IMG/VR virus record: IMGVR_UViG_3300027835_000143
Location: 1 to 64,000 of that record
DNA from: a virus
Reading direction: 5' to 3' (one strand)
Length of the DNA: 64,000 bases
Below, one piece after another: positions 13,713 to 33,681 of this stretch. The stretch's first letter is position 1, and each line of letters begins with the position of its first letter. The notes under the pieces were generated by a model, which was given only the letters and a program-made list of their open reading frames with translations, was not told the DNA's origin and did not search any database. A program made the position numbers and the translations under genes.

Positions 13713-13738
13713 CCACGGAATAGAAAGAGAGGAACGCC

Positions 13739-14730: not shown

Positions 14731-14746
14731 GGCGAGGGAGGGACGC

Positions 14747-15352
14747 ATGGCGACGAGGTCGCGGAAGAAGAAAGGCCCGTTCAGGAAGCTGGAGGCGCCG
14801 CTCCTGCGGCTGGACTTCGGGTGCGGGCCGAATCCGCGCGAGGGGTTCGAGGGGGTCGACCGCCTGGCCTTCGGCGGGAAGGTCAGGCACGTCGTCGACC
14901 TGCGCCACGCGCCGTGGCCATGGACGGACGGCTCCGTCGCGGAGGCGTACGCGTCGCACTTCGTGGAGCACCTGACGGCGCCGGAGCGCGTGCTGTTCTG
15001 CAACGAGCTGCACCGGGTGCTCGTGCCGGGCGGGACCTGCCAACTGGTCGTCCCGCACTGGGCGAGCTGCCGCGCCTACGGCGACCCGACGCACCAGTGG
15101 CCGCCGGTCTCCGAGTTCTGGTTCTACTACCTGTCGCGCGAGTGGCGGGTCGGGAAGGACGGGCAGGCCGCCAACGCACCGCACACGGACGTCGCCCACG
15201 ACCCGGCCGGGTTCGCCTGCGACTTCGAGGCGACGTGGGGCTACGGCCTGCGGCCGGACGCGGCCACGCGGAACCCGGAGTGGCAGCAGTTCGCCGTCGC
15301 GAACTACAAGGAGTTCTGCACTGACATCGTGGCGACGCTAAAGAGGCGGTGA
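14747..15352 (+). CDS. class I SAM-dependent methyltransferase
   Basis: LDFGCG, GVD, ASHFVEHL, ELHRVLVPGG, AYGDPTH. Confidence 0.9.
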   Translation: MATRSRKKKGPFRKLEAPLLRLDFGCGPNPREGFEGVDRLAFGGKVRHVVDLRHAPWPWTDGSVAEAYASHFVEHLTAPERVLFCNELHRVLVPGGTCQLVVPHWASCRAYGDPTHQWPPVSEFWFYYLSREWRVGKDGQAANAPHTDVAHDPAGFACDFEATWGYGLRPDAATRNPEWQQFAVANYKEFCTDIVATLKRR

Positions 15353-16168: not shown

Positions 16169-16563
16169 CGTCCCGCGCGCTGCATTCGGATACGTTCGGA
16201 GACGTCGTCAACGTATATATCGAGCAGCGACGCGAGACGATCGACGTTACGTCCGTCTCGGATGTATCCCGCAGGTTCATGCCAGGACCGAGGGTGACCG
16301 ATCTTACGCTGGAGATCGCATGGCCGACAGACGTCGCGCTCCCCTTCTTCGGCGGCGAAGAGTTCGACGTCGAAGAGACGTTCATGGTCCCCGGCGGCCG
16401 CGCGGCCCGCGTCGCTGGCCGCGCCTATGTCGCAGATAGGTCTAGGATCAGCCTCAGGGCCACGATGACCGTGACCTTGCGCGGTGCGCTCACGGTCACT
16501 GCCGTCGACCCAACCGCCGAATCCATCCGCCGCCGCGTCCGCGAGATCCGAAGGAGCCTCTGA
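16165..16563 (+). CDS. hypothetical protein with tail-tube-like ETIDVTS..RRFMPG motif
   Basis: C-terminal part of ORF 15862..16563; ATG at 16165. Confidence 0.5.
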   Translation: MTSRALHSDTFGDVVNVYIEQRRETIDVTSVSDVSRRFMPGPRVTDLTLEIAWPTDVALPFFGGEEFDVEETFMVPGGRAARVAGRAYVADRSRISLRATMTVTLRGALTVTAVDPTAESIRRRVREIRRSL

Positions 16564-17327
16564 TGCCGAGCGCGAGCCCGCCGATCACACCATACGTCCT
16601 CTCACCGCACGTCGCGGACCTCGTCGTCGAGGACGGAGGCGTCCGCTACCGCGACGAGTCGCTCCGCCGGAGGAAGGTCGCCATCTGCGGCGGGCCTGGC
16701 CAGCGCGACATGCCGTGGGACGATCCGGCGTACGAGTGCTGGGCGATGAACAACTTCTGGAACGGCGCGCGCGACAGCCAGGGACGGATCGCGGCGAGCC
16801 GGTGGTTCGAGCAGCACCAGATCTTCCCGGATCCGGACGGTCTGCACTACCTGGACGAGATCCAGAATGCGAACGATCTGGCGTGGATCCGCGAGTGCCC
16901 GGTCCCGCTCTACACGACGGAGCCGTTCCCGGAGAACCCGACGGCGGTCGTCTTTGACGTCGACGCGCTCGTCGCGAAGGGCTACCGCGACTACTTCACC
17001 TGCACGTTCGCCTACCAGGTCGCGCTCGCGCTCGACGAGGGGTTCCGTGAGCTGCGCGTCTGCGGCATCGAGCTGCTGCTCGGGACGAAGCGCGAAGCGA
17101 CGGTCGAATCCGCGTGCTTCAACTACTGGCTCGGCCTCGCCGAGGGACGTGGGATGCGGATCGATCTCGCGCCGTGCATTGGCCGGTCGGTCGCGTTCGG
17201 CCGCATGGCGCCAGAGTCGCAGTTCCTGCTGAACCACCCATGGCGGTACGGCCATGAGTACTGGCTCGAAGCGGACTTCACTGCGTTTTTCGTCTCGCGG
17301 TGGGATACGAAGAAGGTCGCTGTATGA
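16563..17327 (+). CDS. Maf/sialyltransferase-like putative glycosyltransferase, paralog 1
   Basis: KVAICGG..WDDPAYECWAMN; YFTCTFAYQVALALDEGFRELRVCGIEL; paralog of 23951..24883. Confidence 0.55.
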   Translation: MPSASPPITPYVLSPHVADLVVEDGGVRYRDESLRRRKVAICGGPGQRDMPWDDPAYECWAMNNFWNGARDSQGRIAASRWFEQHQIFPDPDGLHYLDEIQNANDLAWIRECPVPLYTTEPFPENPTAVVFDVDALVAKGYRDYFTCTFAYQVALALDEGFRELRVCGIELLLGTKREATVESACFNYWLGLAEGRGMRIDLAPCIGRSVAFGRMAPESQFLLNHPWRYGHEYWLEADFTAFFVSRWDTKKVAV

Positions 17328-18640: not shown

Positions 18641-18677
18641 CGTCACCTCCGAAACGGTTCTGCGGCCGAACTCGATG

Positions 18678-18738
18678 CGGGAGCCGCCGTTCTCACCGGG
18701 CCGTCCCTTCCACGGCTCAGCGGGACCGGCGGCTCCCG
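18678..18738 (+). promoter_or_regulatory. stem-loop in the leader of the protease/capsid operon
   Basis: CGGGAGCCGCCG (18678-89) pairs with CGGCGGCTCCCG (18727-38); internal GGGCCGT/ACGGCTC stem. Confidence 0.55.
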
Positions 18739-18764
18739 TCGCGTACGGCCAGGACACGAGGCAT

Positions 18765-21647
18765 ATGGCGCTGACCCACTATCAGGCATACCAGAACGCC
18801 GTCGCTGCTGGCGGGCCGGACCCGCTTGCGGCGACGGGCGTGACCATCTTCAAGCAGTACGACGTCGAGGTCGAAGTCGGAAAGGACGGGACGAACGCGT
18901 ACGAAGGCCGGCGCGTCAAGTTCGTCATCACCACGAGCGCGCCGGACCGCGAGAACGACGTCGTCGAGACGCCCGGCATCGAGACCAGCAACTTCGAGAA
19001 GAACCCGGTCGTCATGTGGGCGCACGACTACCGCCAGTTGCCGATTGGACGCTGTGTCGCGATCGAACGGTATCCGACGAAGATGATCGCGACGGTCGAG
19101 TTCGCGCCGGCCGAGATGAACCCGCTGGCGGAACAGGTCTTCCGCATGATCAAGGGCGGGTTCCTGAAGGCGTGCAGCATCGGCTTCCGCCCGCTCGGGT
19201 GGGACTACAACGAGGAACGCGGCGGCGTCGACTTCCAGAAGGCCGAGATGCTCGAGTTCAGCGTCTGCCCGATCCCGGCGAACGCCGAGGCGCTCGTCGC
19301 CGCGAGCGCGGCCGGCATCGACATCTCCGTCGTCAAGGACTGGGCCGCGCGCGTACTCGCGGAGCCGGCACAGTCACGGCCGGCCGGCGTTGCGGCCGTC
19401 GTCATAGACGTCGCGAAGTTCCTCGGCGGCCCTGACGCAGACCCGATCCGCTGGAACCTGGCGCTCCCGAAGTCCTTCGATGTCGCGTCGCAGGAGTTCC
19501 CGCCGCTCAGCAAGGAGCAGGACGTCGCCGCGAAGTACGTCGGCTGCGCCATCAAGGAGCTGTACCACCGGCAGGAGCCTGTGATGTCGACGCGCATGGG
19601 CGCCTTCCTGTCCGCGCTGGACGAGGTCGTCAGGCACACGGCGGTCGACGACATCCGGAACCTGACGTCCGGCGGCAGCGAGGAGCCGCCGCTCTACGAG
19701 CGCATCCAGCTGAACTCGACGCGGACCGAGGAGTTCCTCGTCGACGGCCTGCGGTTCCTGCGCTGGAACAACGTGCGGCTGACGCTCCGCGTGGAACCGC
19801 GCTGGTACGGCCTGCAGGTGACGACCTACGCGGCGAGGCAGCACGCCGACGCGGCGCGCGCGCTGCTCGATAAGGCGTTCGCTCGCGCGCGCGAGCTGAA
19901 CTTCCTCAAGGGCGAAGCGTTTTCACTTTCCGGCGAGTTCCTGACGCGGAGCGCGGAGACGTTCGACGACATCTTCCTCGCAGAGAAGAACGTCGCGGCC
20001 GGGAAGCGGCTACGCGACCTCGTCAACGAGCACGGCGCGAACCTCGAGAACCGCGGCGTCATCATGCTCGGCCCTCCCGGGAACGGGAAGACGCTGCTCG
20101 GCCGCATCCTGATGAGCGAGGCGAAGGCGACGTTCATCTGGTGCTCGGCCCGTGACTTCTACCACGGCGGCGGCTTCCGCGGGATCGCGGAGGCGTTCGA
20201 GATCGCGCGCGAATGCGCGCCGTCGATCATCTTCGTGGAGGACGTCGACAACTACCTCGACGGCTACACGACGGACCTGATGAAGACGGAGATGGACGGC
20301 ATCGCGCAGTCCAAGGGTGTCGTGACGATCCTGACGACGAACTATCCGGAGCTGCTGCCGAAGGCGCTGATCGACAGGCCGGGCCGGTTCCACGACATCC
20401 TCCGCTTCGACCTCCCGGACGCAGAGGCGCGGCTCGCGATGCTGCGGAAGTGGATGCCGGCGCTGAGCGGCGTCGCGCTGCAGGAGACGGTGAAGGCGCT
20501 GCACGGCTACAGCGGCGCGCACGTGCGCGAGTTCGTGCGGTTCGCCGGCATCCTCGCCGTACAGGACGGGCTCGCCGTCGCGGACGCGGCGCGGCTGGCG
20601 CTGGCGAAGCTCGCTGAGCAGCGCGACCTGATTACGCAGGTGCAGACGCAGGGCAGCCGGTACCGCGGGTTCGACGTCGCCAAGGCGGTACCGAGGTCGG
20701 TGGAGACCGTGCCCGCTCAGCTGCCGGTGCACGTCGCGAGGGGCGCCGCGCGGGAGGCGCTGCTCGTCGCATGCGCCACTGCCGCAGATTCGCCGGCCAT
20801 CCCTGCGCCGTTCTCGCGCGACGCGGCTGGCTGGAAGGCGTTCACGAAGGCGCGGGACAGGTTCGCGCGCAAGTCGCACGAGCCGCTGACGCCGGAGAAG
20901 CTGGCCGAGTTCCTCGGTGACTACGGGTTCGAGCCGGAGGCCGCCGTCCTGCGGGACGTGATGGTCACGGACGCTGGCGAGGAGGAAGCGGAGCTGGTCG
21001 GCTACCAGACGCTCCAAGCTCTGCTCGGGCAGGCCGCGCAGAGCGTCTCGGACGCCGCGGCACAGGTCGCCGCGCTGGTCGCCGCCGAGAGCGGCGAGGC
21101 GGCGGCGGAGACGCCGGAGGCGGAGGCGGTCGAGGAGAACGTCGAGGCGGCACGCCTCAGCGCGGTCGTCGCGTTCGCGACGCAGGGGATCGGGACGCTG
21201 CAGGCGGTCTGCGGTCTCGCCTGCGACCTGAACGCAGAGGACGAATACGAAGCCGAGAATCCGCTACTGATGGCGCACGGCGACGGGTCGCTGACGGTGT
21301 GGAAGTCCGGCCGCGTCCTGAGCCGCGCGAACGAGACGAAGCTGAAGAACGCGATGGCGCACATGTCCGCCGGGTCGCAGCACGTGCAGGACGTCCTCGA
21401 CAGCGTCGCGCAGGACGACGGCGACGCCGAGGCGGCCGCGGCCGCGCTCCGGGACGCGGACGTGCTCATGGACGACGCAGAAGCGGACGACGGGATCGTC
21501 ATCCTGCGCGAGGAGGAGCCTGTCAGCGACGCCCTCGTCGACGTCGCGCCGGAGATGCTGGCGGCCGCGATCAGCGACGCCATCGGGAAGATCGTAGGGG
21601 CGGAAGTGCACGCGGCGGTCGCGTCCGCGCGCGGACGCATCGACTAA
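18765..21647 (+). CDS. HK97-family prohead protease fused to an AAA+ ATPase and an acidic scaffold-like tail
   Basis: DRENDVV, NPVVMWAHD, CSIGF, EFSVCPIPAN; GPPGNGKT, IIFVEDVD, TTNYP..ALIDRPGRF; KSGRVLSRANETKL; RBS supports ATG 18765. Confidence 0.9.
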   Translation: MALTHYQAYQNAVAAGGPDPLAATGVTIFKQYDVEVEVGKDGTNAYEGRRVKFVITTSAPDRENDVVETPGIETSNFEKNPVVMWAHDYRQLPIGRCVAIERYPTKMIATVEFAPAEMNPLAEQVFRMIKGGFLKACSIGFRPLGWDYNEERGGVDFQKAEMLEFSVCPIPANAEALVAASAAGIDISVVKDWAARVLAEPAQSRPAGVAAVVIDVAKFLGGPDADPIRWNLALPKSFDVASQEFPPLSKEQDVAAKYVGCAIKELYHRQEPVMSTRMGAFLSALDEVVRHTAVDDIRNLTSGGSEEPPLYERIQLNSTRTEEFLVDGLRFLRWNNVRLTLRVEPRWYGLQVTTYAARQHADAARALLDKAFARARELNFLKGEAFSLSGEFLTRSAETFDDIFLAEKNVAAGKRLRDLVNEHGANLENRGVIMLGPPGNGKTLLGRILMSEAKATFIWCSARDFYHGGGFRGIAEAFEIARECAPSIIFVEDVDNYLDGYTTDLMKTEMDGIAQSKGVVTILTTNYPELLPKALIDRPGRFHDILRFDLPDAEARLAMLRKWMPALSGVALQETVKALHGYSGAHVREFVRFAGILAVQDGLAVADAARLALAKLAEQRDLITQVQTQGSRYRGFDVAKAVPRSVETVPAQLPVHVARGAAREALLVACATAADSPAIPAPFSRDAAGWKAFTKARDRFARKSHEPLTPEKLAEFLGDYGFEPEAAVLRDVMVTDAGEEEAELVGYQTLQALLGQAAQSVSDAAAQVAALVAAESGEAAAETPEAEAVEENVEAARLSAVVAFATQGIGTLQAVCGLACDLNAEDEYEAENPLLMAHGDGSLTVWKSGRVLSRANETKLKNAMAHMSAGSQHVQDVLDSVAQDDGDAEAAAAALRDADVLMDDAEADDGIVILREEEPVSDALVDVAPEMLAAAISDAIGKIVGAEVHAAVASARGRID

Positions 21648-21674: not shown

Positions 21675-22991
21675 ATGTCGCAGACGATGACGCGCGCGGA
21701 ATTGGCGGAACTGGTCGCCATAAACGTCCGTGACGCAGTCGGCAAGGAACTGACGGAGAAGATCCGTGCGAACGTCGAGGCGGCCACGGCCGGTCTCCGC
21801 GAGAAGGTCACGAGCTGGGGCGAGCGGGTCACCGGCGACGTCGACCAGCGGCGCGTCGGCAAGCAGAAGCGGTGGTCGGTCGAGAACGACCCGTCGATGC
21901 CTCAGGACGTGGACACGCGCGGCATCGCGCTTGCCCGCTGCGTCCGAGCGACGGCAGCCGCGCGCGCCTCCGGGCAGGGTCCGGAGTACGCGATGGACGT
22001 GCTGAAGATGTGGGGTAACGGCGACCTCGCCGAGGAGTGGGCCGCGGCCCGCGGCAAGGCGATGACGGCAGGCGACGCGACGGCCGGCGGTTTCATCGTG
22101 CCGATCCAGTTCGTGCAGGACTTCGTCGCGTTCCTGCGCGCCGCGACGGTCATCAGGCGGCTCGGCTGCCCGACGATCCCGCTGCCGACGGGCACGGCGA
22201 AGATGGGCAAGGCGACGGCCGGCGCGAGCGCCGGATACGTCGGCGAGTCCACGAACGCGCCGAAGACGCAGCTCTCCACCGGGCAGCTCACCCTCAGCTT
22301 CAAGAAGCTGATGGCGCTCATCCCGGTCTCGAACGACCTGCTCCGCTACAGCTCACCCGGCGCGGACATGATCGTCCGCAACGACCTCGTCGCAGCGATG
22401 AGCGTCAGGGAGGACAGCGCGTTCATCCGCGGGGACGGCACGGACGGCTCGCCGCGCGGCCTGCGCTACTGGACTCCCGGCGGCAACATCGTCCAGGCGA
22501 ACGGGACCGCGTCGCTGCAGAACACGGCGACGGACCTCGGGCAACTCATGCAGGCGCTGATGACGGCGAACATCCCGATGATCAACCCGTGCTGGATCAT
22601 GTCTCCGCGCTCGCGCAACTTCCTCATGACGCTGCTGACGACGACCGGCACCTTCGTCTACAAGGACGAGATGGCCGGCGGCACGCTCTGGGGCTACCCG
22701 TTCGGCGTGACGACCGGCGTGCCGGACAACCTGAACTTCACGGCGGCCGGAAACAACAACGAGTCTGAGATCTACTTCGCCGACATCGGGCAGGGGCTGA
22801 TCGGCGAGGCGGAGACGCTGACGATCGACGCGAGCCGAGAGGCGGCGTACCACGACGGCAACGCGGTGCAGTCGGCGTGGTCGCGAGACGAGACGACAAT
22901 CCGCGCGATCGCGGAGCACGACTTCGTCATGCGCTACGACGCGGCCGTGGCCGTGCTCGCCGGCGTGACGTGGAGGCCGGGCAGCGTCTAA
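21675..22991 (+). CDS. major capsid protein (HK97 fold)
   Basis: AGGFIVP, YVGES, KKLMALIPVSNDLL, FIRGDGT..PRGL, TLWGYP, IRAIAEHDF. Confidence 0.95.
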   Translation: MSQTMTRAELAELVAINVRDAVGKELTEKIRANVEAATAGLREKVTSWGERVTGDVDQRRVGKQKRWSVENDPSMPQDVDTRGIALARCVRATAAARASGQGPEYAMDVLKMWGNGDLAEEWAAARGKAMTAGDATAGGFIVPIQFVQDFVAFLRAATVIRRLGCPTIPLPTGTAKMGKATAGASAGYVGESTNAPKTQLSTGQLTLSFKKLMALIPVSNDLLRYSSPGADMIVRNDLVAAMSVREDSAFIRGDGTDGSPRGLRYWTPGGNIVQANGTASLQNTATDLGQLMQALMTANIPMINPCWIMSPRSRNFLMTLLTTTGTFVYKDEMAGGTLWGYPFGVTTGVPDNLNFTAAGNNNESEIYFADIGQGLIGEAETLTIDASREAAYHDGNAVQSAWSRDETTIRAIAEHDFVMRYDAAVAVLAGVTWRPGSV

Positions 22992-23057: not shown

Positions 23058-23705
23058 ATGATCACGCGAGACGTCGGAGAAGTCCGGGTCGTCCCCGCGT
23101 TCAACTCCGCCAGCTACGACGCGAGCTGCGGGTCGATGAACGGGGACAGCACCGGCAACCTTGTCCTGGGGTTCATCATCGACCGGCTCGGGCTCGGCCG
23201 CAGCTTCAACGCGGTCCTGGTCGAGGCGGACGTGGACGCTGACATCGGCACGTCGACGGCGTCGGACAACAAGGCCGGGTTCATCAGCGCGTGGCTCTTC
23301 CACAGCTCGACGACCTGCGCCGCGGACTTCGACCTCTACTCGACGGAGCGGGTCGCGCGCCAGCCGCTCTTCATCTTCGCAGGGCCGAACGCCACCTCGA
23401 CGCTGACGGGCGGCTACACGGCGACGTCGACGAGCGTCGGCACCTTCGGGACGTTCTCGGCCACGGCGACCGGCAGCGCTCGCGCCGGCTTCGGGGCCGT
23501 CTACTCCCTCGCCGGCGCCGGCCGCTACCTGCAGGTCGCGGTCCTGCCGGAGGCGTACGCGTCGAGTTCCGGCGGGACCCGGATGCGCTGCTCGGCGAGC
23601 CTGATCTTCGGCGAGCCGGACGACGTCGCGGTGTTCCCGACGACGAGCACCGGGCAGGGCGCCGCGGGATCGAGCAGTGCCTACACCTCCCCTTGGAGGT
23701 CGTAG
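23058..23705 (+). CDS. putative capsid decoration protein, Ser/Thr-rich
   Basis: Directly after the capsid gene with strong RBS; IIDRLG..RYLQV pattern. Confidence 0.55.
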   Translation: MITRDVGEVRVVPAFNSASYDASCGSMNGDSTGNLVLGFIIDRLGLGRSFNAVLVEADVDADIGTSTASDNKAGFISAWLFHSSTTCAADFDLYSTERVARQPLFIFAGPNATSTLTGGYTATSTSVGTFGTFSATATGSARAGFGAVYSLAGAGRYLQVAVLPEAYASSSGGTRMRCSASLIFGEPDDVAVFPTTSTGQGAAGSSSAYTSPWRS

Positions 23706-23942
23706 GTGCTCATCGCAGCCGTAGTCGCTGCGCGTCCCCTGCAACTGCAGGGGGCGCGCTACAACGTCGGGGAGGGCATCATGCTCGACCCGACGAACGC
23801 CCAGCACCGCGAGGTGCTGGATAGCGGATGGGCGCTGCCTGTGCCAGCGACGGCGGCCGTCGTCGCGCCGCCAGCGCACAAGATGGTCGTCTCGGCGGCC
23901 GCCAAATCCCTGGCGCCAGCACCGCCGCGCGGCAAGTCGTAG
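23706..23942 (+). CDS. small hypothetical head-associated protein
   Basis: YNVGE..L..GWA..PPAHKMV pattern typical of post-capsid small genes. Confidence 0.55.
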   Translation: MLIAAVVAARPLQLQGARYNVGEGIMLDPTNAQHREVLDSGWALPVPATAAVVAPPAHKMVVSAAAKSLAPAPPRGKS

Positions 23943-23950
23943 GGGGGCAC

Positions 23951-24883
23951 ATGAGCAGCAACGTGACGGACGCGGTCGTCCCGCAGGGCGTCGAGGGCGT
24001 CGATCCGAACCACCCGGCGAAGAACCGGACGATGCGGATCCTCGACGCCGAGCACGGCCTGATCGAGCGGACGCGCGACAAGCTCGCGATCGTCGGCTAC
24101 GCCAGCAGCACGCGCGACATGGCGCCGTTCGACGACCCGGAGTACGACATCGCCGGCCTGAACCAGATCTACCGGTTCCTGCCGCGCGAGGACGTGCACA
24201 TGGACATCCATGTCAACTGGGACGAGGAGAACGTCGAAGGGACGGACCATCGCGGATGGATCAGAGACTGCGGCATCCCGGTCCTGATGACGAAGGTCCA
24301 CATGGACCTCCCGACGTCCGTGGCCTTTCCGGTCGACGCCGTGATCGGCATCGCGACGGACTACCTGACGAGCAGCGTCGCGTTCTACATCGCCTGGGCG
24401 ATCCATCAGGGGTACAAGCGGATCGACCTGTTCGGAATCGACCTGATCGTCGGGACCGAGTACGAGTTCCAGAAGGCGTGCGCGGAGTTCTGGCTCGGCG
24501 TCGCGCACGGCCGCGGGATCCACGTCAACATCCCGCCGCAGAGCGCGCTCCTCCGGCACTCGCACCGGTACGGCTACGAGCGGGAGCCGCAGATCGGCCT
24601 CGTCAGCTTCGCGGAGATGGACGCGCGCCTCGGCGGCCTCACGAAGCAGCGCGACAAGCAGCTCTCGCGGCTCTACGCCTTCGACGGCGCGCTGCACGAG
24701 AACGTCAAGCACGACGAGTGGAAGGACGACCCGGCGAAGCGGCGCGCGTGGCTGAACGAGCAGCGCAGCGACACGATGGCGCAGATCGCGACGTTCGACG
24801 GCGCGCTGCAGGAGGCCGGATATACGCGCGAGCTGTACCGCCTGCGGAGCCGCGGCGCGGCCGTCCCGATCGTGACCGAGTAG
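23951..24883 (+). CDS. Maf/sialyltransferase-like putative glycosyltransferase, paralog 2
   Basis: KLAIVGY..FDDPEYDIAGLN; YLTSSVAFYIAWAIHQGYKRIDLFGIDL; EYEFQKACAEFWLGVAHGRGI; C-terminal coiled coil. Confidence 0.6.
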   Translation: MSSNVTDAVVPQGVEGVDPNHPAKNRTMRILDAEHGLIERTRDKLAIVGYASSTRDMAPFDDPEYDIAGLNQIYRFLPREDVHMDIHVNWDEENVEGTDHRGWIRDCGIPVLMTKVHMDLPTSVAFPVDAVIGIATDYLTSSVAFYIAWAIHQGYKRIDLFGIDLIVGTEYEFQKACAEFWLGVAHGRGIHVNIPPQSALLRHSHRYGYEREPQIGLVSFAEMDARLGGLTKQRDKQLSRLYAFDGALHENVKHDEWKDDPAKRRAWLNEQRSDTMAQIATFDGALQEAGYTRELYRLRSRGAAVPIVTE

Positions 24884-24923
24884 CGGACGTCGGCGCGCGC
24901 CATGGCGCGCAGGAGGTGACCTG

Positions 24924-25241
24924 GTGCCACTGCAGACGGCGATGTTCGCGAACCAATTCTCGACCGACATCCTGCTCGCGGCGGCGTCTCCGAACGGCTC
25001 GGCGTTCGTGTTCGGCTTCAATTCCACGTACGTCCGGGTCATCAACCTCGCAGAGGTGCCGATCCGGGTCAACCTGAAGTCCACGGCTCCGGCGACGACG
25101 GATGACCCGCTGCTCCTGCCTGGCAAGGACATCAGCATCTACGACGTCCCGATCGGCGGCGGCGCTGTGATGACGACGTCGACGACGACGAGCACGGACG
25201 AGTCAGGCCACTGGGTGTCGGTTAGCGCGTGGGGGATCTAG
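24924..25241 (+). CDS. small beta-rich virion protein, S/T-rich
   Basis: GGAGG RBS; MTTSTTTSTDES. Confidence 0.6.
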   Translation: MPLQTAMFANQFSTDILLAAASPNGSAFVFGFNSTYVRVINLAEVPIRVNLKSTAPATTDDPLLLPGKDISIYDVPIGGGAVMTTSTTTSTDESGHWVSVSAWGI

Positions 25242-25244
25242 GGC

Positions 25245-25577
25245 ATGCCGATCACACGTCAGGTCCCGCGCGTCTTCAACACGACGTCGACCGGCGGCAT
25301 CGTCACGTCGAGCAGCGGGCAGAACTACCAGCTCGGCTTCCGGCCGCGCGTGATCCAGATCGAGAACCTCGGCGGCTCGCCGCTCTGGATCACGTTCGGC
25401 ACGACGTGCGTCGCGACGACGAGCGGCCTGATGATCTCGACCGGCCAGACCGGGAGCGTCTTCTACGCCCAGCTCGGGCTCGAGAACGGGCCGCCGGCGA
25501 TCAGCGGGTTCGAGATCTTCAGCATCGGCGGGACGTCGACGACCACATCGCAGGTCAACATCTGGGCGCTCGGGTAG
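25245..25577 (+). CDS. small beta-rich virion protein, S/T-rich; likely distant paralog of the previous gene
   Basis: FGFNSTYVRVINL vs LGFRPRVIQIENL; both end in V.V/I.AWG/WALG. Confidence 0.6.
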   Translation: MPITRQVPRVFNTTSTGGIVTSSSGQNYQLGFRPRVIQIENLGGSPLWITFGTTCVATTSGLMISTGQTGSVFYAQLGLENGPPAISGFEIFSIGGTSTTTSQVNIWALG

Positions 25578-25586
25578 GGACCGTGA

Positions 25587-26270
25587 ATGATCACCTCAGT
25601 CTGCACGACGTCTACCGAGACGCAATTCGCCGCGATCGGGGACCTGATGGTGCTCCTCAACAGTACCGCGTCGTCCTCCGGACTCGACAAGGCGCTGACG
25701 GACGCGACGGCGTGGACGGAGCGGTTCGTGACGAACCGCATCGCCGGGTCGATCCGTCGGAGCCTCGTGCGGGAGACGGTCGCCGGCAGCGGGTCGCAGC
25801 AACTTATGCTCTCGCGGACGCCGATCCTCAAGGTCGTCCGGATGTTCGACGCGACGGACACAGGGCAGGCGACCGAGTACTGCTCGACGGACTTCCGCAT
25901 CGAGGACGCGGACGCCGGGTTCGTCACGCTGACGAACAACGCCGGGTTCTCCTGGGACTACGTGCCGGACTATTACCTGGACCGGTACCCGCGGCCGGGG
26001 CAGGTCGTGCGCCGGTGGCTCGTCGAGTACGAGGCCGGGTGGCAGCTCGCCTGCTCGTCCTCGACCGGCAAATGGGCGAGCGTGACGACCGGCCGGACGC
26101 TGCCGGAGGACGTCGAGCGCGCGGTCCTGCTGAAGGCGGCGGACTTCGCGCAGGGCAGCGTCGGGCAGTCGATCAGCGGGATGCGCGTGGGACCACTCGC
26201 GCTGAACTACGCCTCGGAGTCGCTCGACCCGGTCGTCGAGCTGCTGTCGCCGTACCGGCGGGAGGCGTAG
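25587..26270 (+). CDS. head-tail adaptor (gp6/gp15-like)
   Basis: ATAWTERF, LSRTPI, VEYEAGW, LPEDVERAVL, LLSPYRR. Confidence 0.8.
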   Translation: MITSVCTTSTETQFAAIGDLMVLLNSTASSSGLDKALTDATAWTERFVTNRIAGSIRRSLVRETVAGSGSQQLMLSRTPILKVVRMFDATDTGQATEYCSTDFRIEDADAGFVTLTNNAGFSWDYVPDYYLDRYPRPGQVVRRWLVEYEAGWQLACSSSTGKWASVTTGRTLPEDVERAVLLKAADFAQGSVGQSISGMRVGPLALNYASESLDPVVELLSPYRREA

Positions 26271-26636
26271 GTGCCGGCGATCTCCGTCCGCAGCTTCGCG
26301 CCGCTGATGCGCCAGCGCGTGACGGTCAACCCGATCGTCGCGAGCAGCAGCGGGTACGACGACTACGGGAACGCGTCGTACGGCGCCTCGGTCGTATACC
26401 AGTGCGCTGTCGTCATGGAGATGAAGCTCGTCACGGACGCGCAGGGGCAGCAGGTGCCGTCCGGGACGCAGGTCTACCTCGCCTCCGCCGCGGCCGTGCG
26501 TCCGGAGGACAGGATCACGCTCAGCACCGCCGACGTCGGCAGCACGGAGAGCTACGCGATCAACCCGCGGATCATCTCGGTCCAGCGGTACCCGTTCACG
26601 CGCGGGCAGTTCGTGACGTGCATCTACTCGAAGTGA
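26271..26636 (+). CDS. head closure/stopper protein
   Basis: Position; DDYGN, LVTDAQGQQVPS, EDRITL. Confidence 0.65.
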   Translation: MPAISVRSFAPLMRQRVTVNPIVASSSGYDDYGNASYGASVVYQCAVVMEMKLVTDAQGQQVPSGTQVYLASAAAVRPEDRITLSTADVGSTESYAINPRIISVQRYPFTRGQFVTCIYSK

Positions 26637-26640
26637 CTGC

Positions 26641-27048
26641 ATGCCAGACAACCTGACCATCACCGGCATCGCGTCCGTGTCGGACGCCCTGTATAGGCTC
26701 GCGGATTCCATGCTGTCCGAGTCGGCGATCGTGCTGAACGCGATCGCCGAGGCGACCATGACGGACGCGAAGGAGCACACGCCGGTGCAGTACGGCGTCC
26801 TGCGGCGCAGCGGCAAGGTCGACACGCATGCGGAGCCGACGCGGCTGCACGCGGTTCTCTCGTTCGGGACCGAGTACGGCGTCTACGTCCACGAGGACCT
26901 CCGCGCCAGGCATCACGTCGGAGAAGCGAAATTCCTAGAGAACGCCGTGAAGCGCGCGGCGCTGACGTTCGAGCGCGACGTGGCGGCCGGGCTCGGGGTC
27001 GGGAAGGGCCACGCGGCGCCCTCCCCCGGCGGGGGAGGACTGCTGTGA
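26641..27048 (+). CDS. HK97 gp10-like neck/tail protein
   Basis: AKEHTPVQYGVLRRSG, YGVYVHE, AKFLENA. Confidence 0.8.
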   Translation: MPDNLTITGIASVSDALYRLADSMLSESAIVLNAIAEATMTDAKEHTPVQYGVLRRSGKVDTHAEPTRLHAVLSFGTEYGVYVHEDLRARHHVGEAKFLENAVKRAALTFERDVAAGLGVGKGHAAPSPGGGGLL

Positions 27049-27359
27049 TGTCGACGACCTGTCACGCGACGTTCTCAGGGCGGATCGACCCGTCTGTAGA
27101 CCGGCTGCTCCGCGCCTATGGCGCCGCCATGGCGGTGGCCGGGATCGACGAGGCAGTCGACGAACTCCTGGCGCGCGTCGTGACGCCGCACCGGCTGCTG
27201 ACGATCAAGCACGACGGCCCGTGCTCCTTCTCAATGGCGCTGACGCCGTTCGCGGAGCTGGCGCTGCGGCAGTCGATCCACATCGCGCAGGACGGCGCGC
27301 TGGACGGCGCGACGAAACTGCGCCGGGTGCGCGAGACGCTCGCGCTGAGCGGGTTCTGA
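27045..27359 (+). CDS. hypothetical protein
   Basis: Coupled ORF. Confidence 0.5.
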   Translation: MMSTTCHATFSGRIDPSVDRLLRAYGAAMAVAGIDEAVDELLARVVTPHRLLTIKHDGPCSFSMALTPFAELALRQSIHIAQDGALDGATKLRRVRETLALSGF

Positions 27360-27362
27360 TGG

Positions 27363-27773
27363 ATGGCCGGCATCGAGGACGACCTGGCGGACTTCCTATC
27401 AACCGGTGGGATCTCGACGACGATGTTCAAGGACTTCCTGCCGGAGCGGCCGGACGAGGCGCTGCAGATCCTCCGGACCGGTGGATACCCGCCGGTGCAC
27501 CGGATGTCGGCGACGGCCGGGAACCCGGTCGAGGAGCGGCCGACGGTGCAGATCCTGCGACGGTCGCAGTCGGTCCAGCGCGCGCTCGCGGAAATGAACG
27601 TCATCTGGCGGATGCTCGACGGCGCCGGGGACGTCACGATCAACGGGACGCGGTACTTCTGGGTCGAGGCGATGCAATCGCCGTTCCCGTTCCCGCGCGA
27701 CGAGACGAACCGGGCGCGGATCGTCTGCAACTTCATGGCGTGCAAGGCCGTGACGACGGCCACGTCGACGTAG
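27363..27773 (+). CDS. tail terminator
   Basis: LPERPD, TGGYPP, PTVQILRR, QSPFP..RDETNR..CNF. Confidence 0.8.
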   Translation: MAGIEDDLADFLSTGGISTTMFKDFLPERPDEALQILRTGGYPPVHRMSATAGNPVEERPTVQILRRSQSVQRALAEMNVIWRMLDGAGDVTINGTRYFWVEAMQSPFPFPRDETNRARIVCNFMACKAVTTATST

Positions 27774-27785
27774 CGAGGGGCTGAG

Positions 27786-28184
27786 ATGGCGACACTGGAC
27801 TATCGCGATGCGCGCATCTATGTCGATGGCTACGAGCTGTCAGGGGACTTCGACACGCTGAACGTCGCGCTCTCGGCCGAGACGCTCGATGAGACGAGCA
27901 TGGGCGACACGACGCGCATCCGCAAGGGTGGCCTGACGGTCGCGGATATCGACGGATCAGGGTTCTGGGACGGCGCGGCAGGGCACGTCGACCAGCTCGC
28001 GTTCGGGATCGTCGGCACGGACGATAAGATCATCACGGTCTTCGCGAACGGGCTGACCGAAGGGACGGCGACCGACAAGGGGTTCTCGTTCAAGGGCGTG
28101 CTGAACAAGTTTAACCTCAAGGGCACCGTCGCGCAGTTGCTCGCCTTCGACTTCGGCGCGAAGGGGAGAGGAATCGAGGCATGA
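27786..28184 (+). CDS. tail tube-like protein, paralog A
   Basis: ETLDETSMGDTTRIRKGGL; paralog of 28566..28979. Confidence 0.7.
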   Translation: MATLDYRDARIYVDGYELSGDFDTLNVALSAETLDETSMGDTTRIRKGGLTVADIDGSGFWDGAAGHVDQLAFGIVGTDDKIITVFANGLTEGTATDKGFSFKGVLNKFNLKGTVAQLLAFDFGAKGRGIEA

Positions 28185-28552
28185 TCCTCAGGTCAGTACC
28201 GCTGAAGGACGCCACGCAGGTCGCGCTCACGAGCTGCGGGCAGGGGACCGTCTTTGACGTCGGCGGCGTCTGGGCCGGGAAGAAGGCGTACGCCGGCCTG
28301 CACATCCTCAGCTCGTCGACGGGCGGATTCAAGTGCCGGATCCTCTCGAACAGCTCGTCCGGCTTCACCGGCGGCAACCCGGGGACCGTCCGGTTCAACT
28401 TCACGTGCTCGGCGGCGCGCGCGGCCGAGTGGCTGAACCCGCTGTCGACGTCGACGATCACGTCGACGGACCAGAAGTTCTGGCGCACGATCTGGGAGAT
28501 GACGACAAGCGGCGAGAGCTACAAGGCGCTCCCGTTCATGGGCATCCAGTAG
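28181..28552 (+). CDS. tail-associated beta-sandwich protein, S/T-rich
   Basis: ATGA overlap; resembles the C-terminal domain normally fused to paralog A. Confidence 0.6.
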   Translation: MILRSVPLKDATQVALTSCGQGTVFDVGGVWAGKKAYAGLHILSSSTGGFKCRILSNSSSGFTGGNPGTVRFNFTCSAARAAEWLNPLSTSTITSTDQKFWRTIWEMTTSGESYKALPFMGIQ

Positions 28553-28565
28553 AGGAGAAGATACC

Positions 28566-28979
28566 GTGGCGACACTCCACTTCCGCAACGCGAACCTCCA
28601 GGTCAACGGGGTCGACCTGAGCGCAGACACCGACTCGATCGCCCTGAACTACAGCTCGGAGATGCTGGACGAGACGGCGATGGGCGACACGACGCGCATC
28701 CGCAAGGGCGGCCTGCTCGTCTGGTCGATCGACGTGAATTTCCACCAGGACTTCTCGGCCAGCCATCCGGACGGGACGTTGTTCTCGCTGATCGGGACGA
28801 CGGTCTGCGTCGAGTGCAGGCCGAACAACGTCTGCTCGACGACGATCAACCCGATCTACTCCGGCGTCGGCATCCTGGAGAAGTACAACCCTCTGGGCGG
28901 CAAGGTCGGCACGCTGCTCGACGCGCCGATGACGATCCAGAGCGCCGGAACGCTCTCGCGGAATACGACCGCGACGTAG
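28566..28979 (+). CDS. major tail tube protein, paralog B
   Basis: Strong RBS; VNGVDLS, EMLDETAMGD, FHQDF, NPIYSG, GKVG. Confidence 0.75.
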   Translation: MATLHFRNANLQVNGVDLSADTDSIALNYSSEMLDETAMGDTTRIRKGGLLVWSIDVNFHQDFSASHPDGTLFSLIGTTVCVECRPNNVCSTTINPIYSGVGILEKYNPLGGKVGTLLDAPMTIQSAGTLSRNTTAT

Positions 28980-28982
28980 CCG

Positions 28983-29696
28983 ATGCCGACGTTCGGATCC
29001 CTCTACACGGGGCTCGGCGGGTTCGACTGCGGGCTCGTCAAGGCCGGCTACCGCTGCCGCTGGCAGGCGGAGACGGACGCCGACTTGCGCGCGCACCTCG
29101 CGCGCCGGTTCCCGGACGCGCGGCAGCACGAGAGCGCGGCGGCGGCGAGGAGCGACGAGATCGCGGACGTCGACCTCGTCTACGCGGAGATCCCGCTCGG
29201 GTCATTCGGGCCGGAGTGGGCGATGCCGGCCGTCGAGGTCGCGCTCACGCGCGCGTCCTGGCTCCTGCTGGACGGCTCTCCGGCGCCGTGGCTCGAGATC
29301 GGGGCGCCGAGTGTGCAGCTGATCGCGCACGGCTGGCGCGTCTCCTACCGTTACATCGTCTATGCGACGGACGGGCCGACCGGCCGGTCGCTCGTCCGTA
29401 AGCGCGTCTGGATGCTCGCCAGCCGGACCGGACACCCGTCGGCCGTCATGGACCTGCTTCACCTCGATCCTGACGAGCCGGACGGGCGTCCGCAGCCGGT
29501 ACCTGGCGTCGTCGGCGAGACGGACGCGGCGGCGCTCGCGGACGTCGAGGCGATCCGCATGCTGCCGTCCGGCTGGACGGACGGCCTGCCGGAGGCGGAC
29601 GCGCGCGACGGGCTGGCCGGCGCCGCGAGCCCGGCGGTCGGATATGCGTTCGGACTGGTGCTGAAGGAGATCGGCGGATGCGTGCGAGCGGCCTGA
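28983..29696 (+). CDS. degenerate C5 cytosine DNA methyltransferase-like protein
   Basis: SLYTGLGGFDCGL..AG..WQAE motif I/II retained; catalytic PC replaced by EIPL; RKRVW and LPSGWT retained. Confidence 0.7.
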   Translation: MPTFGSLYTGLGGFDCGLVKAGYRCRWQAETDADLRAHLARRFPDARQHESAAAARSDEIADVDLVYAEIPLGSFGPEWAMPAVEVALTRASWLLLDGSPAPWLEIGAPSVQLIAHGWRVSYRYIVYATDGPTGRSLVRKRVWMLASRTGHPSAVMDLLHLDPDEPDGRPQPVPGVVGETDAAALADVEAIRMLPSGWTDGLPEADARDGLAGAASPAVGYAFGLVLKEIGGCVRAA

Positions 29697-30558: not shown

Positions 30559-33500
30559 ATGCCTGTAAATGTCGGAACGATACAAGCCGTGCTCCAGCTC
30601 CGCGACGAAATGAGCGCGAAGCTCAATGAGGCATCGCATAACCTCTCCGGGTTCGGGCAGGAATCCGTCTCGACGAGCACCGTCGTGAAGGCCAGCATGG
30701 CCGCAGCGGCAGCCGCAGTGACGGCCGTGGCCGCGTCGATCTACGAACTCGGCAACCGCGGGTCCGACGTCGACGACGTCCGGGCCGCGTTCGAGCGCAT
30801 GACGCACAGCATGGGCACGGACGCGACTGAGGCCATCGCCGCGCTGCGCAAGGGCGTCGTCGGCACCGTCGGCGACTACGACCTCATGATCGCGTCGAAC
30901 AAGCTGATGGGCGCTGGGATGCATCTCACGGCGGACCAGTTCGGCATGGTCGCGACCGCGGCGCGCGCGCTGGCGAAGAACACCGGCAAGGACATCCCGG
31001 AGGCGTTCGACCTCGTCGCCGGCGCGCTGACGACCGGGCGTGTCCGGTCACTGCAGGCGGCCGGCGCGCTGGTCGAGATAAAGGGCGCGAGCGCGGAGCT
31101 GACCGCGCAGCTCAAGGCCGAGGGCGAGGGCATGACGACCGGCGCCGACATGGCGACGAAGCGCGGCGCCGTGATGGAGACGCTGGCGCAGATCGTCAAG
31201 CAGAGCGGCGTCTCCGAGGCCGACTTCAAGGAGAAGGTCGACGCCGGGATCACCAGCTTCCGCAACTGGATCGACGACCTCGCCGTCGCCGTCGCGAACT
31301 CGCCGGTCTTCGCCAAGATGCTCGACGGCATCGGTGCCGCCTTCAGCGAGGCGTTCGGCGGCAAGCAAGAGGACTCGATCCACGCGATCGTGCACGGGCT
31401 GGAGCAGGCTGCGACTATCATCGCGGACGTCGGTGTCGTCGCCCTGCAGGCTGGCAACGTGTTCGTCCAGGTATGGGGCGGGATCAAGACGGTCGTGCTC
31501 GGCGTCGAGACGGTCATCCTTGGACTAGTTACCGCAGTCGGCGAGGTCCTGCTCGTGGCTGAGAAGCTCGCCGTTAAGCTCCATATCTTCCCGCCGGAGG
31601 AGGTCGCGCGGATCCAGTCGACGCAGAACGCCCTGCGGCAGATGACGGTCGGTCTCGCGCTGGAGACCGCCGAGGCGGCGAAGACGGCGGCCGGCAACTC
31701 GGAGGCGACGAAGACCATCGACAGGATGAGCGGCGCGCTCTACAAGATCAAGGACGACATGGCGGCCGCGTCGTCTGCGGCGACCACGCACGCCGCGGCG
31801 GCCACTGGTGTCGGCGGCGCGTGGGCCGGCGCGGCTGGCGGGATGGCGATGGCCAGCGCGGCATCCGTGGCGGCCGCGAAGGCGATGCGCGAGCTGACGG
31901 CCGAGGTCGAGTCCGCGTTCCTGCATGGCGTGCCGATGAACACGATGATCGCCGACTACGGGGACAAGGCGTACAAGGCGGTCGCCGCGTCCCTCGCACT
32001 CGGCGGCGCGATCTCTGACGTGACGGCCCAGATGGCCGCGTCGTACATGCTGCAGGAGGCGCACAAGATGGAGACCGCCGGTCTTACCGGCGAGATCAAG
32101 CCGATTGGCGCCAGCACAGAAGACCAGTACAAGCGCGAACTGGCGAAGGCCGACGAGTACTGGAAGGCGTACGAGACGCTCCAGACGAACGCGCTCAAGC
32201 GCGGCAGCGACGAAGCCGTCGCCGTCGCCCAGCAGCACGTGGACCTGGACAAGATGCGCGGCGCCTCGCACGCCCAGCTCTTCGCCGACATGGAGCAGGT
32301 CGAGGTCGCGAAGGCGAAGAGCGGCATCGAACAGGAGAATCGCCGGTTCGAGCTGGCGACAGATGGTGTCAACAAGCTGTCTGACACCTACCGCGTCATG
32401 GCTGAGGATCACCGGCAGGCCGTCGCGCAGATGACCGCGGACTACGGACGCGGCGTCGCGACGCGCCTCGAAGCGGAGAAGGGCGCCGACTTCGGCCAGA
32501 CGTTCAAAGCCGCGTTCGCCGCGCTGCCGCAGGCGCTGCTCGCGGCGTTCCAGGGCGGTGGCGACATCGGGAAGACGATCGGCGGCCTGTTTGGGACGCA
32601 TATCTTCGGCCCAGAGTCCGGGCTGACGAAGCACCTGACGGGCCTGATGTCGGCCCATCTTGGCAAGACGATCGGCGGGGCGCTAGGGACGATGATCCCA
32701 GGGATCGGCACACTCCTCGGCGGCATGGCTGGGCAGCTGATCGGACCGCTGATTGGGAAGATCAGCGGCTTCTTCGCGCACCTGTTCGGCGGCGCGAGCG
32801 ACCAGGAGAAGGCTGGTAGGCAGCTGACCGACCAGTTCGCGGCGTCGATGGGTTCGCTGGCGTCGGCGGCGGACCAGGCCGAGATCCGCGCGAACGAGGC
32901 CGCCGGCGCGAGCGCGAAGTGGGCGGAGACTGCCGTCACGGTCAAGAACGCGTACGTCGCCGTCGGACGTTCCGGGGAGGAGGCGCTCGCCGACGTCCAG
33001 CGCCTGTTTGACGCAGAGAAACAGGGTGGCGGCGCAGTACAGAAGGTGATCGATGAGATTACGGCGAAGATGCACGCTCAGGAATCGCAAGCGACTGCAA
33101 CCGCTGAGACGTGGCTTGGTTCTATGGATACGGCTACCGCGGGCGTCATTTCTGGCGTAGACGCGACAGGGCGAGCATTTAGCGATGTCGGCCAGTCAGC
33201 CGTCGGCGCAGCGAAAGTCGCTGCCTCGGCATGGCAGATGGCCGTCAACAGCGTCGACGTCTCTAGGCTGAAGCAGCAGTTCAACTTCTCCTACACGTCC
33301 GGCGGCGGCACCGGCGAGCAGAGCACGAGCGAGGGCCGGAACGAGTCGCACATCTTTGAGGGGATGTCGGCGGCGGAGGCCGCGGCGGTCTGGCTCGCGG
33401 ACGTCGCGAGCAGAGGGTCGACGGAGCAGGACTGGAATCGCGTCAAGGACCAGTACGGGTTCGCGGCCGGCGGCATCGTCACGGGGCCGGTCGACGCGCG

Positions 33501-33681
33501 GATCGGCGAGGGCGGATCGCCGGAGATGGTGCTGCCGCTCCCGACCGGCGGCGGACCGGTCTACGACGCCGACGTCCACGACGAGATCCGGAAGCTCCGT
33601 GAGGATGTCGCCGCGATGCAGCGCGACCAGCCGCGCGCGCTCGCGATCGCCATCCGGGACGCGCTGACACTGGCACGATAG
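30559..33681 (+). CDS. tape measure protein
   Basis: 1040 aa, Ala-rich helical; N-terminal VGTIQAVLQLRD; C-terminal FAAGGIVTGP..IGEGG.PEMVLPL. Confidence 0.92.
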   Translation: MPVNVGTIQAVLQLRDEMSAKLNEASHNLSGFGQESVSTSTVVKASMAAAAAAVTAVAASIYELGNRGSDVDDVRAAFERMTHSMGTDATEAIAALRKGVVGTVGDYDLMIASNKLMGAGMHLTADQFGMVATAARALAKNTGKDIPEAFDLVAGALTTGRVRSLQAAGALVEIKGASAELTAQLKAEGEGMTTGADMATKRGAVMETLAQIVKQSGVSEADFKEKVDAGITSFRNWIDDLAVAVANSPVFAKMLDGIGAAFSEAFGGKQEDSIHAIVHGLEQAATIIADVGVVALQAGNVFVQVWGGIKTVVLGVETVILGLVTAVGEVLLVAEKLAVKLHIFPPEEVARIQSTQNALRQMTVGLALETAEAAKTAAGNSEATKTIDRMSGALYKIKDDMAAASSAATTHAAAATGVGGAWAGAAGGMAMASAASVAAAKAMRELTAEVESAFLHGVPMNTMIADYGDKAYKAVAASLALGGAISDVTAQMAASYMLQEAHKMETAGLTGEIKPIGASTEDQYKRELAKADEYWKAYETLQTNALKRGSDEAVAVAQQHVDLDKMRGASHAQLFADMEQVEVAKAKSGIEQENRRFELATDGVNKLSDTYRVMAEDHRQAVAQMTADYGRGVATRLEAEKGADFGQTFKAAFAALPQALLAAFQGGGDIGKTIGGLFGTHIFGPESGLTKHLTGLMSAHLGKTIGGALGTMIPGIGTLLGGMAGQLIGPLIGKISGFFAHLFGGASDQEKAGRQLTDQFAASMGSLASAADQAEIRANEAAGASAKWAETAVTVKNAYVAVGRSGEEALADVQRLFDAEKQGGGAVQKVIDEITAKMHAQESQATATAETWLGSMDTATAGVISGVDATGRAFSDVGQSAVGAAKVAASAWQMAVNSVDVSRLKQQFNFSYTSGGGTGEQSTSEGRNESHIFEGMSAAEAAAVWLADVASRGSTEQDWNRVKDQYGFAAGGIVTGPVDARIGEGGSPEMVLPLPTGGGPVYDADVHDEIRKLREDVAAMQRDQPRALAIAIRDALTLAR

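Follow-up and report, generated by a model that had tools for sequence, protein, structure and literature searches.

Does a phage that carries a transferase-like gene amid its head and tail genes use it to decorate its own particle? The question is raised by a 64,000-nucleotide stretch of DNA (the window) that forms the first 64 kb of the 95.7-kb IMG/VR virus record IMGVR_UViG_3300027835_000143 (estimated completeness 94% by CheckV; GC content ~68%). A preliminary description of its head-to-tail region, positions 23058-28979, had proposed that short serine/threonine (S/T) clusters recur in nearly every head, neck and tail protein, and that the phage coats itself at this S/T motif with a transferase of its own. 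We find that the clustering is real and confined to five proteins, that three of these belong to families in which it is conserved, and that the genome encodes two transferase-like paralogs together with the genes of a sugar pathway. We regard it as a serious possibility, a little short of an even chance, that selected virion proteins of this phage are O-glycosylated with a phage-made nonulosonic acid. Genes are named below by the window position at which they start; their coordinates are collected in Table 1.

Ser/Thr clusters in the head-to-tail proteins

We counted S/T runs and triplets in each protein and derived the expected counts from composition-preserving shuffles of the same protein. 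All strings quoted in the preliminary description are present in the translations of the open reading frames (ORFs) to which it assigned them. S/T content amounts to 18-25% in seven small structural proteins (23058, 24924, 25245, 25587, 26271, 28181 and 28566) and to 7-12% in the enzymes and early genes, which agrees with the sparser S/T that had been remarked there by eye; the portal, named in the same remark, is at chance. Runs of at least three S/T residues exceed the shuffled counts in 23058 (7 vs 2.2), 25245 (4 vs 1.2) and 28181 (5 vs 1.2), and the terminator 27363 shows a weak enrichment (2 vs 0.3). When overlapping triplets were ranked genome-wide (95.7 kb, 104 coding-like ORFs), the highest clustering z scores fell to 25245 (z=5.4, the genome maximum), 24924 (z=4.8), 23058, the ORF at 23828-24883, 28181, a FemAB-like sugar gene, the adaptor and the terminator, in this order. 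The 23828-24883 ORF, which contains the transferase-like gene, has just two triplets, both within its own conserved motifs, and the FemAB-like gene has two as well.

By the same shuffles, clustering does not exceed chance in the major capsid protein (MCP, 21675), 26271, 26641, 27045, the tube paralogs 27786 (tube 1) and 28566 (tube 2), the portal or the tape measure protein. Nor is there any clustering beyond composition in the fibres 11313, 33685 and 34944, which at 20-28% S/T are the S/T-richest proteins of the phage and serve as an internal negative control: a high S/T content alone does not yield clusters. The claim that nearly every head, neck and tail protein is clustered is thus partly confirmed, for 23058, 24924, 25245, the adaptor, 28181 and, weakly, the terminator; it does not extend to the MCP, tubes, other neck proteins, portal and fibres. 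Three of the enriched proteins represent conserved families and two are lineage-specific small proteins. A GC-driven composition as the cause of the clusters is ruled out, since they persist in relatives at 47-57% GC and the shuffles preserve composition.

The clusters have a direction. Among twelve head-to-tail proteins, three S/T residues followed by glycine ([ST]3-Gly) occur 12 times against 1.3 expected, and the reverse order, Gly-[ST]3, 3 times against 1.3. A cysteine lies within two residues of a triplet in 6 cases (0.6 expected), so that the reported proximity of clusters to Cys is borne out. The 23058 family has invariant C24, D42, R43 and H82; possible roles of these residues, and of the cysteines beside triplets, are metal binding, cross-linking or a chemical reaction at the triplets.

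Conservation of the clusters across related phages

Aligned sequences of the transferase-like protein, used for a pattern scan, retrieved 80 viral loci, and a second scan with a 23058 alignment added 8 new ones; relatives are denoted L with a number where they have to be told apart. The gene order portal, 16563 paralog, protease, MCP, 23058, 23951, adaptor ... tube 1, 28181, tube 2 is kept among relatives whose GC content spans 47-73% and whose MCPs show 38-66% identity, and the two transferase-like genes hold fixed positions in the head operon of about 90 related contigs. Triplet windows are enriched in the family means of 23058 (9.3 vs 2.7 expected, n=32), the adaptor (6.6 vs 2.0, n=36) and 28181 (5.4 vs 1.9, n=18), weakly so in the terminator family (1.4 vs 0.7), and show no enrichment among orthologs of the MCP, portal, tube and neck proteins. 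The directional motif lies six- to ten-fold above expectation in the 23058, adaptor and 28181 families, with 1.1 vs 0.15 occurrences per ortholog in the adaptor (n=36) and 2.2 vs 0.23 in 28181 (n=18).

The clusters recur at fixed alignment columns: DIGTSTAS, HSSTTC, NTTST, MATSTSVGT, ASSSGG and TTSTG in 23058; HxLSSSTGG, SSSSGF, PLTTxTxTST and MTTSGES in 28181; and VC-TSSTE, TASSSG, FDSTST and ATTTT in the adaptor. Conserved S/T columns, mostly clustered, make up 13-20% of columns in these three families and 2-9% in controls. Distant 23058 homologs (with an N-terminus MINR...) contain 18-25% S/T, and several have 10-14 triplets against ~2.5 expected. On metagenomic contigs, 23058 is always accompanied by the enzyme where the contig reaches far enough; the enriched families were not found outside the present clade and always stand alongside the enzyme, and tblastn searches of 50,697 GenBank phages gave no match to 23058, 28181 or the adaptor.

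The transferase-like proteins

The transferase-like gene reported amid the structural operon is real, at 23951-24883, and its predicted structure has the fold of CstI/CstII and Maf; an upstream ATG at 23828 is probably not its true start. The AlphaFold (AF2) model, built from 34 sequences with a predicted local distance difference test score (pLDDT) of 84, consists of a core (residues ~29-204) and a C-terminal antiparallel coiled-coil hairpin (218-298). CstI/CstII were the only Foldseek matches at E<0.001 (E 5e-4). VIA-align gave Z scores of 10.6 and 10.5 for Cst-I (2p56, 2p2v), 10.3 for Maf (5MU5) and 10.1 for CstII (1ro7), with 152-161 residues aligned in the Cst-I/CstII superpositions and a root mean square deviation of 3.8 A over 164 residues for Maf (model 31-204 on chain 259-499). 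The top six glycosyltransferase matches all use cytidine monophosphate (CMP)-sugar donors. MptE-type HPPK (Z 10.0), SteA (9.3) and TPK (8.6) also align across residues 29-204, and the model places the 23951 product in a GT42/Maf/MptE-like fold group. No Pfam, PHROG or PDB sequence-profile match to 23951 was obtained beyond coiled-coil noise.

The paralog 16563 lacks the coiled-coil tail and is 34% identical to 23951 (E 2.6e-22). Both share the invariant polar residues N71 (in an N-Q motif), H87, D137-Y138-x-T140, E170 and R206-Y207-G208, a set that suggests an enzyme. We take the N-Q motif after strand 2 and a T-S motif of 23951 to resemble the nucleotide-sugar contacts of CstII. Searches at E<=0.001 returned 4,979 cluster representatives, and the family appears to be mostly viral. 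In three distant homologs (P0242, P0249, P0325) an intein with a Cys start, a ...SHN|S end and a LAGLIDADG-like insert interrupts the conserved motif GIDLxVGTEY|SQKAC. Inteins are typically located at functionally critical sites, and the insertion within GTEY|SQK would thereby lend indirect support to catalysis. The long homologs carry no informative fused domains, inteins only; some relatives are fused to an S-adenosylmethionine (SAM) methyltransferase, and one viral Atlas cluster combines this fold with Methyltransf_11. The cultured cyanophage Mvi-Yong1342-1 of Microcystis (PP496355.1) encodes a 267-aa homolog of 31% identity at 6914-7717, directly upstream of the small terminase gene, under the annotation 'type 11 methyltransferase'. 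Taken with the pathway described below, we consider it probable that the enzyme is a CMP-sugar transferase.

A sugar pathway outside the window

A sugar gene cluster lies beyond the window in the same record, at genome positions 89151-95591 (Table 1), and the oxidoreductase gene 1030, at the other record end, is possibly its last member. The Pfam family-level matches pass, and the NCBIfam equivalog cut-offs are missed (TIGR03589 240 vs 408 bits, TIGR03586 85 vs 340, TIGR03584 27 vs 206). The genome has no PF01041 match, as a DegT-type PseC would give; a class-III aminotransferase is present instead. The product is best termed an unspecified 5,7-diamino nonulosonic acid, probably with unusual N-acylation. 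Two GIY-YIG/NUMOD3 homing endonuclease genes accompany the cluster, one ~0.7 kb upstream of the first sugar gene (genome 87831-88421) and one inside it (90888-91760).

NeuB was sought in the records of 18 related loci, and the cytidylyltransferase and PseB-like genes in the ten longest of these records (at least 36 kb). The full trio occurs in 6/6 relatives of 90% completeness or more and in 9/10 of the longest records; the sole exception is a contig that ends at the portal gene, where the cluster would begin. The phage NeuB-like protein has no match in 50,697 GenBank phage records, so the co-occurrence of pathway and enzyme is not background. A CMP-sugar pathway alongside enzymes shaped like CMP-sugar transferases favours a transferase over a kinase. 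By coordinates, the sugar cluster of three relatives precedes the packaging and head genes and shares their strand; in the present genome it would adjoin the packaging genes if the two ends of the record are joined.

This arrangement bears on two other uses of the sugar. The pathway and enzymes might remodel the host (lipopolysaccharide, capsule or flagellin, for superinfection exclusion or release) and leave virion proteins unmodified, as one could expect from GT42 enzymes, which normally sialylate glycans, and from phage sugar genes including pseI, which are usually read as auxiliary metabolic genes (PMC6359870; phage pseI is found only in a list of such genes). We judge host remodelling improbable: in about 90 contigs one paralog is fixed between portal and protease and the other between decoration-like protein and adaptor, the relatives' pathway genes share the strand of the packaging genes that follow them, and reading the translated proteins by eye we noticed no transmembrane region, signal peptide or flippase-like partner. 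Attachment of the sugar to phage DNA as a hypermodification is far less probable still. We know of no nonulosonic acid on DNA, known DNA glycosyltransferases belong to another fold class than 23951, and the genes lie within the morphogenesis operon, not the replication module. In its favour, phage glycosyltransferases often modify DNA (bioRxiv 10.1101/2023.12.21.572611).

Candidate acceptor proteins

The prime candidate acceptor is 23058, which has seven S/T triplet clusters and 190 relatives, none of them with a name. Its AF2 model (pLDDT 71, predicted template modelling score 0.71) is a jelly-roll with strands 10-21, 52-63, 71-83, 139-150, 157-167 and 174-184. All clusters of this single model fall where acceptor sites had been expected, in loops or low-confidence segments: hairpin turns (64-69, 168-173), a strand end or loop (82-87) and segments of pLDDT <50 (110-117, 122-136, 195-215). 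The closest structural neighbours are XepA (Z 8.8), YomS (7.9), the cement protein of phage BPP-1 (6.5) and BclA-type domains resembling tumour necrosis factor (~6), scores that fall within the range of common beta-sandwiches. The jelly-roll matches and the position 3' of the MCP suggest that 23058 is a capsid decoration protein.

Two small proteins and two conserved families complete the set. 24924 is lineage-specific, with homologs in L027, L074 and L075 only, and shows weak paralogy to 25245, whose clusters are TTSTGG, TSSSGQ, ATTSG and GTSTTTS. The conserved clusters of the adaptor are VC-TSSTE, TASSSG, FDSTSTxxATE, ETS-STD and ATTTT; the weakly enriched terminator contains LSTGG and ends in a short S/T tail. 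In 28181 the clusters read HILSSSTGG, NSSSGF, PLSTSTITST and MTTSGES, and S58-S59-S60 and T96 are invariant. Its alignment to phrog_9522, a 'major tail protein' of 241 aa, covers the C-terminal half of that PHROG; because this one PHROG spans both, tube 1 and 28181 are possibly fused in other phages. Here 28181 has its own Shine-Dalgarno sequence and an ATGA overlap with tube 1, and we rejected a frameshift fusion of the two, as 28181 has that ribosome-binding site and no slippery site was seen.

The Atlas gave a lead from 28181 to Bbp16-like clusters. Neither 23058 nor the 28181 family has a Pfam match to Bbp16 (PF21190), and a likeness to Bbp16 is weak, resting as it does on the Z of 6.5 for 23058 and on the Atlas lead for 28181. 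An hhalign comparison of 23058 with 28181 gave a probability of 1%, on which we rejected their homology; the adaptor is unrelated to either.

Proposed mechanism and its rivals

In the mechanism that we infer, late-operon enzymes of the phage would make a nonulosonic acid late in infection, a CMP-activated 5,7-diamino sugar of the pseudaminic/legionaminic type. The two small, soluble, cytoplasmic CstII/Maf-fold enzymes would then move this sugar to Ser/Thr hydroxyls before or during assembly. Acceptors would be the decoration-like 23058, 24924, 25245, the head-tail adaptor and the tail-associated 28181, at conserved loop clusters that often read [S/T]3-Gly. The two paralogs might serve two acceptor sets, or one of them might add a second sugar onto the first. 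An acidic sugar coat could alter the particle surface, and shielding, solubility or host-glycan mimicry are speculative outcomes. Given a CMP-sugar transferase, virion proteins are reasonably likely targets; given such targeting, the clusters are favoured as the sites to a similar degree. The earlier idea that the phage coats itself at an S/T motif with its own transferase keeps the support of the fold, the pathway, the conserved clusters and their loop location in the 23058 model; the coat would be confined to five proteins rather than virion-wide.

Several observations weigh against glycosylation at these clusters, beginning with that confinement, which counts against the virion-wide form. 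The adaptor is largely buried in the neck. Residue identity is better conserved in the cluster columns than on average in the family, and when we looked in the alignments for S/T interchange, a signature of acceptor regions, we found little; together these indicate a constraint that a structural role fits as well as an acceptor role. Enrichment had been expected to track the 23951 family, and 23058 does always stand beside the enzyme, but four distant 23058 homologs (L054, L059, L066, L069) have the enzyme and triplet clustering at chance. The co-occurrence itself, inside one clade, is not independent evidence. On the enzyme side, the fold alone cannot tell a transferase from a pyrophosphokinase, because MptE-type HPPK scores within 1 Z unit of the glycosyltransferases. 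In hmmscan searches against Pfam-A, the protein and 34 relatives gave no match to PF06002 at E<=1; PF01973 has no match at E<=1 in the genome and matches 1/34 family members at E 0.23, below the gathering score. The complete genome of the Microcystis phage, with its enzyme homolog, has no NeuB and no cytidylyltransferase.

The conserved columns are at the centre of the main rival, itself unlikely, in which the particle is glycosylated with nonulosonic acid and the clusters are structural (turns, hydrogen-bond networks, subunit contacts), with the acceptors elsewhere, for example in fibres or at a few single residues. Highly identity-conserved columns with low S/T mixing look like ordinary structural columns, distant homologs keep the enzyme without clusters, Maf substrates have no known sequon (PMC11339370), and several clustered proteins may share a Bbp16-like jelly-roll and hence may not be independent. 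What structural clusters account for less readily is the same directional [ST]3-Gly in families without detectable homology (23058 vs 28181, and the unrelated adaptor), the placement in loops or low-confidence segments of the 23058 model and not in strands, and the unclustered S/T-rich fibres of the same phage.

The ambiguity of the fold leads to a further alternative, that the 23951/16563 family is no glycosyltransferase and comprises an MptE/TPK-like pyrophosphokinase or a non-catalytic assembly factor, the sugar pathway serving another purpose. The near-equal scores of MptE-type HPPK, SteA and TPK, the missing Pfam membership, the homolog in a phage without the sugar pathway and the fusions to SAM methyltransferase in some relatives would all fit. 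We hold this alternative to be quite improbable, with the six top glycosyltransferase matches being CMP-sugar users and a CMP-sugar pathway present in every near-complete relative. Glycosylation of selected virion proteins also admits a wider version, that a minimal Maf/GT42-fold family (~5,000 sequence clusters, mostly viral) reads [S/T]3-Gly loops and that, in many uncultured phages, it coats chosen accessory proteins of head, neck and tail with a sialic-acid-like sugar that the phage itself makes; in this breadth we find it doubtful.

Comparison with known systems

By analogy, the proposed system would combine two known kinds, Maf-type protein glycosylation and phage virion glycosylation. 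Maf enzymes of Campylobacter, Helicobacter, Aeromonas, Magnetospirillum (5MU5) and Clostridium botulinum (CbMaf), which use pseudaminic/legionaminic acid, have the same catalytic-core fold (Z 10.3) and, like the enzymes here, are soluble, cytoplasmic and linked in the genome to a PseB/NeuB/cytidylyltransferase pathway. They differ in size, having ~600 aa and three domains with flanking helical domains, whereas the phage enzymes have 310 aa (core and coiled-coil hairpin) or 254 aa (core only) and, unlike Maf, no PF01973 match. Maf proteins O-glycosylate flagellin, a structural protein that assembles itself, with nonulosonic acids at surface Ser/Thr close to hydrophobic or low-complexity stretches, and without a known sequon (PMC11339370); we propose similar sites here, with phage particle proteins as the acceptors and with a recurrent [S/T]3-Gly. 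The best structural matches, CstI/CstII of Campylobacter jejuni, share the GT42 fold and CMP-sugar donors, but their acceptors are lipooligosaccharide sugars and not proteins, and their family PF06002 is unmatched here. Relative to the pseudaminic acid pathway (PseB, C, H, G, I, F), the phage genes give family-level matches only, with the class-III aminotransferase in place of PseC.

Among cement proteins, Bbp16 of Bordetella phage BPP-1 (3J4U) is likewise a jelly-roll beside the MCP (Z 6.5 to 23058), without a sequence match to 23058 or 28181. We know of no glycosylation of Bbp16. To our knowledge, particle glycosylation is established in few phages only, and with ordinary sugars; the glycosylated mycobacteriophages reportedly use conventional glycosyltransferases and hexose-type glycans. 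As in the system proposed here, their phage-encoded glycosyltransferases act on the phage's own particle. There, the capsid and tail tube subunits carry the glycans at their C-termini (Freeman et al. 2023, PMC10527164, cited by PMC12619734), whereas in the present phage the MCP and tubes are unenriched, the clusters lie in internal loops of accessory proteins and the proposed sugar is a nonulosonic acid. In place of S/T-rich C-terminal extensions on the MCP and tubes there are only short S/T tails, on the terminator and tube 2. Full-text literature searches turned up no description of a Maf-like enzyme in a phage, nor of a phage particle that bears nonulosonic acid.

If the wider version is true, these would be the first phage particles decorated with nonulosonic acid and the first sequon-like acceptor motif for such protein O-glycosylation. 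A phage that coats itself with a bacterial sialic-acid-like sugar would also give a function to a very large uncharacterised viral protein family. It would alter views on how stable phages are, how they adsorb and how hosts, grazers and immune systems recognise them, and glyco-engineers could take an interest in enzymes so small that modify Ser/Thr directly, in the manner of sialylation, at a short acceptor motif. What the window contributes is the acceptor side: proteins with and without clusters, a directional motif, its conservation and its loop location. Named candidate acceptors and sites make the idea testable without the uncultured host.

Gene order and neighbouring genes

ORF translations and profile searches place the morphogenesis operon on the + strand (Table 1).

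Table 1. Features of the window and of the sugar cluster outside it. Positions are those of the window; aa, amino acids.
Feature	Position	Strand	Match
GFO/IDH/MocA-type oxidoreductase	1030-1881	+	PF01408 E 1.4e-8
Portal with Mu-F domain	8175-10877	+	
S/T-rich repeat fibre, 799 aa, 28% S/T	11313-13712	+	
Weak GT-A-like gene and weak Methyltransf_11-like gene	14008-15352	+	PF00535 E 0.13; Methyltransf_11 E 0.001
First transferase-like gene (16563 paralog, 254 aa), between portal and protease	16563-17327	+	
Prohead protease fused to AAA+ ATPase	18675-21647	+	
HK97-type MCP	21675-22991	+	
23058 protein, 215 aa, predicted jelly-roll, directly 3' of MCP	23058-23705	+	
Small conserved ORF, 78 aa, between 23058 and 23951	23706-23942	+	
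Second transferase-like gene, 310 aa	23951-24883	+	
Small beta-rich protein with TTSTTTST tract	24924-25241	+	
Small beta-rich protein with four S/T clusters	25245-25577	+	
Head-tail adaptor	25587-26270	+	phrog_442 E 2.6e-13
Connector	starts 26271	+	
gp10-like neck protein	starts 26641	+	
Protein between 26641 and terminator	starts 27045	+	
Tail terminator	27363-27773	+	PF12691 E 2.4e-12
Tube paralog 1	starts 27786	+	
S/T-cluster protein, 123 aa, between tube paralogs	28181-28552	+	
Tube paralog 2	28566-28979	+	
Tape measure protein, then fibres (33685, 34944)	30559-33681	+	
PseB-like UDP-N-acetylglucosamine (UDP-GlcNAc) 4,6-dehydratase	sugar cluster		PF02719 E 9e-68; TIGR03589 240 bits
Cytidylyltransferase (CTP_transf_3)	sugar cluster		PF02348, 104 bits
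NeuB/PseI-like synthase	sugar cluster		PF03102, 100 bits
FemAB-like protein	sugar cluster		
Class-III aminotransferase	sugar cluster		
GNAT acetyltransferase	sugar cluster		

The block 11313-15352 is missing in the closest relatives, where the 16563 paralog lies directly 3' of the portal. In 18675-21647, one reading frame runs from a prohead serine protease (Peptidase_S78) through a classic AAA+ ATPase into a long acidic tail. The tube paralogs that flank 28181 are 43% identical to each other. Among cultured phages, tube 2 comes closest to the major tail proteins of Rhodococcus phages and of Pontimonas phage phiPsal1 (31-35% identity), a resemblance that gives a weak hint of an actinobacterial host. 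Only the first ~68 residues of the 237-aa product of 28983-29696 (+), in the tail module, match C5 cytosine DNA methyltransferases, and it may be a truncated or repurposed methyltransferase domain. In the position of 23706, distant relatives (L047, L049, L052, L057, L062-L068) have ORFs of ~70 aa that share with it an R-G-Y-x-Q-Y-N-x-G-E/D core.

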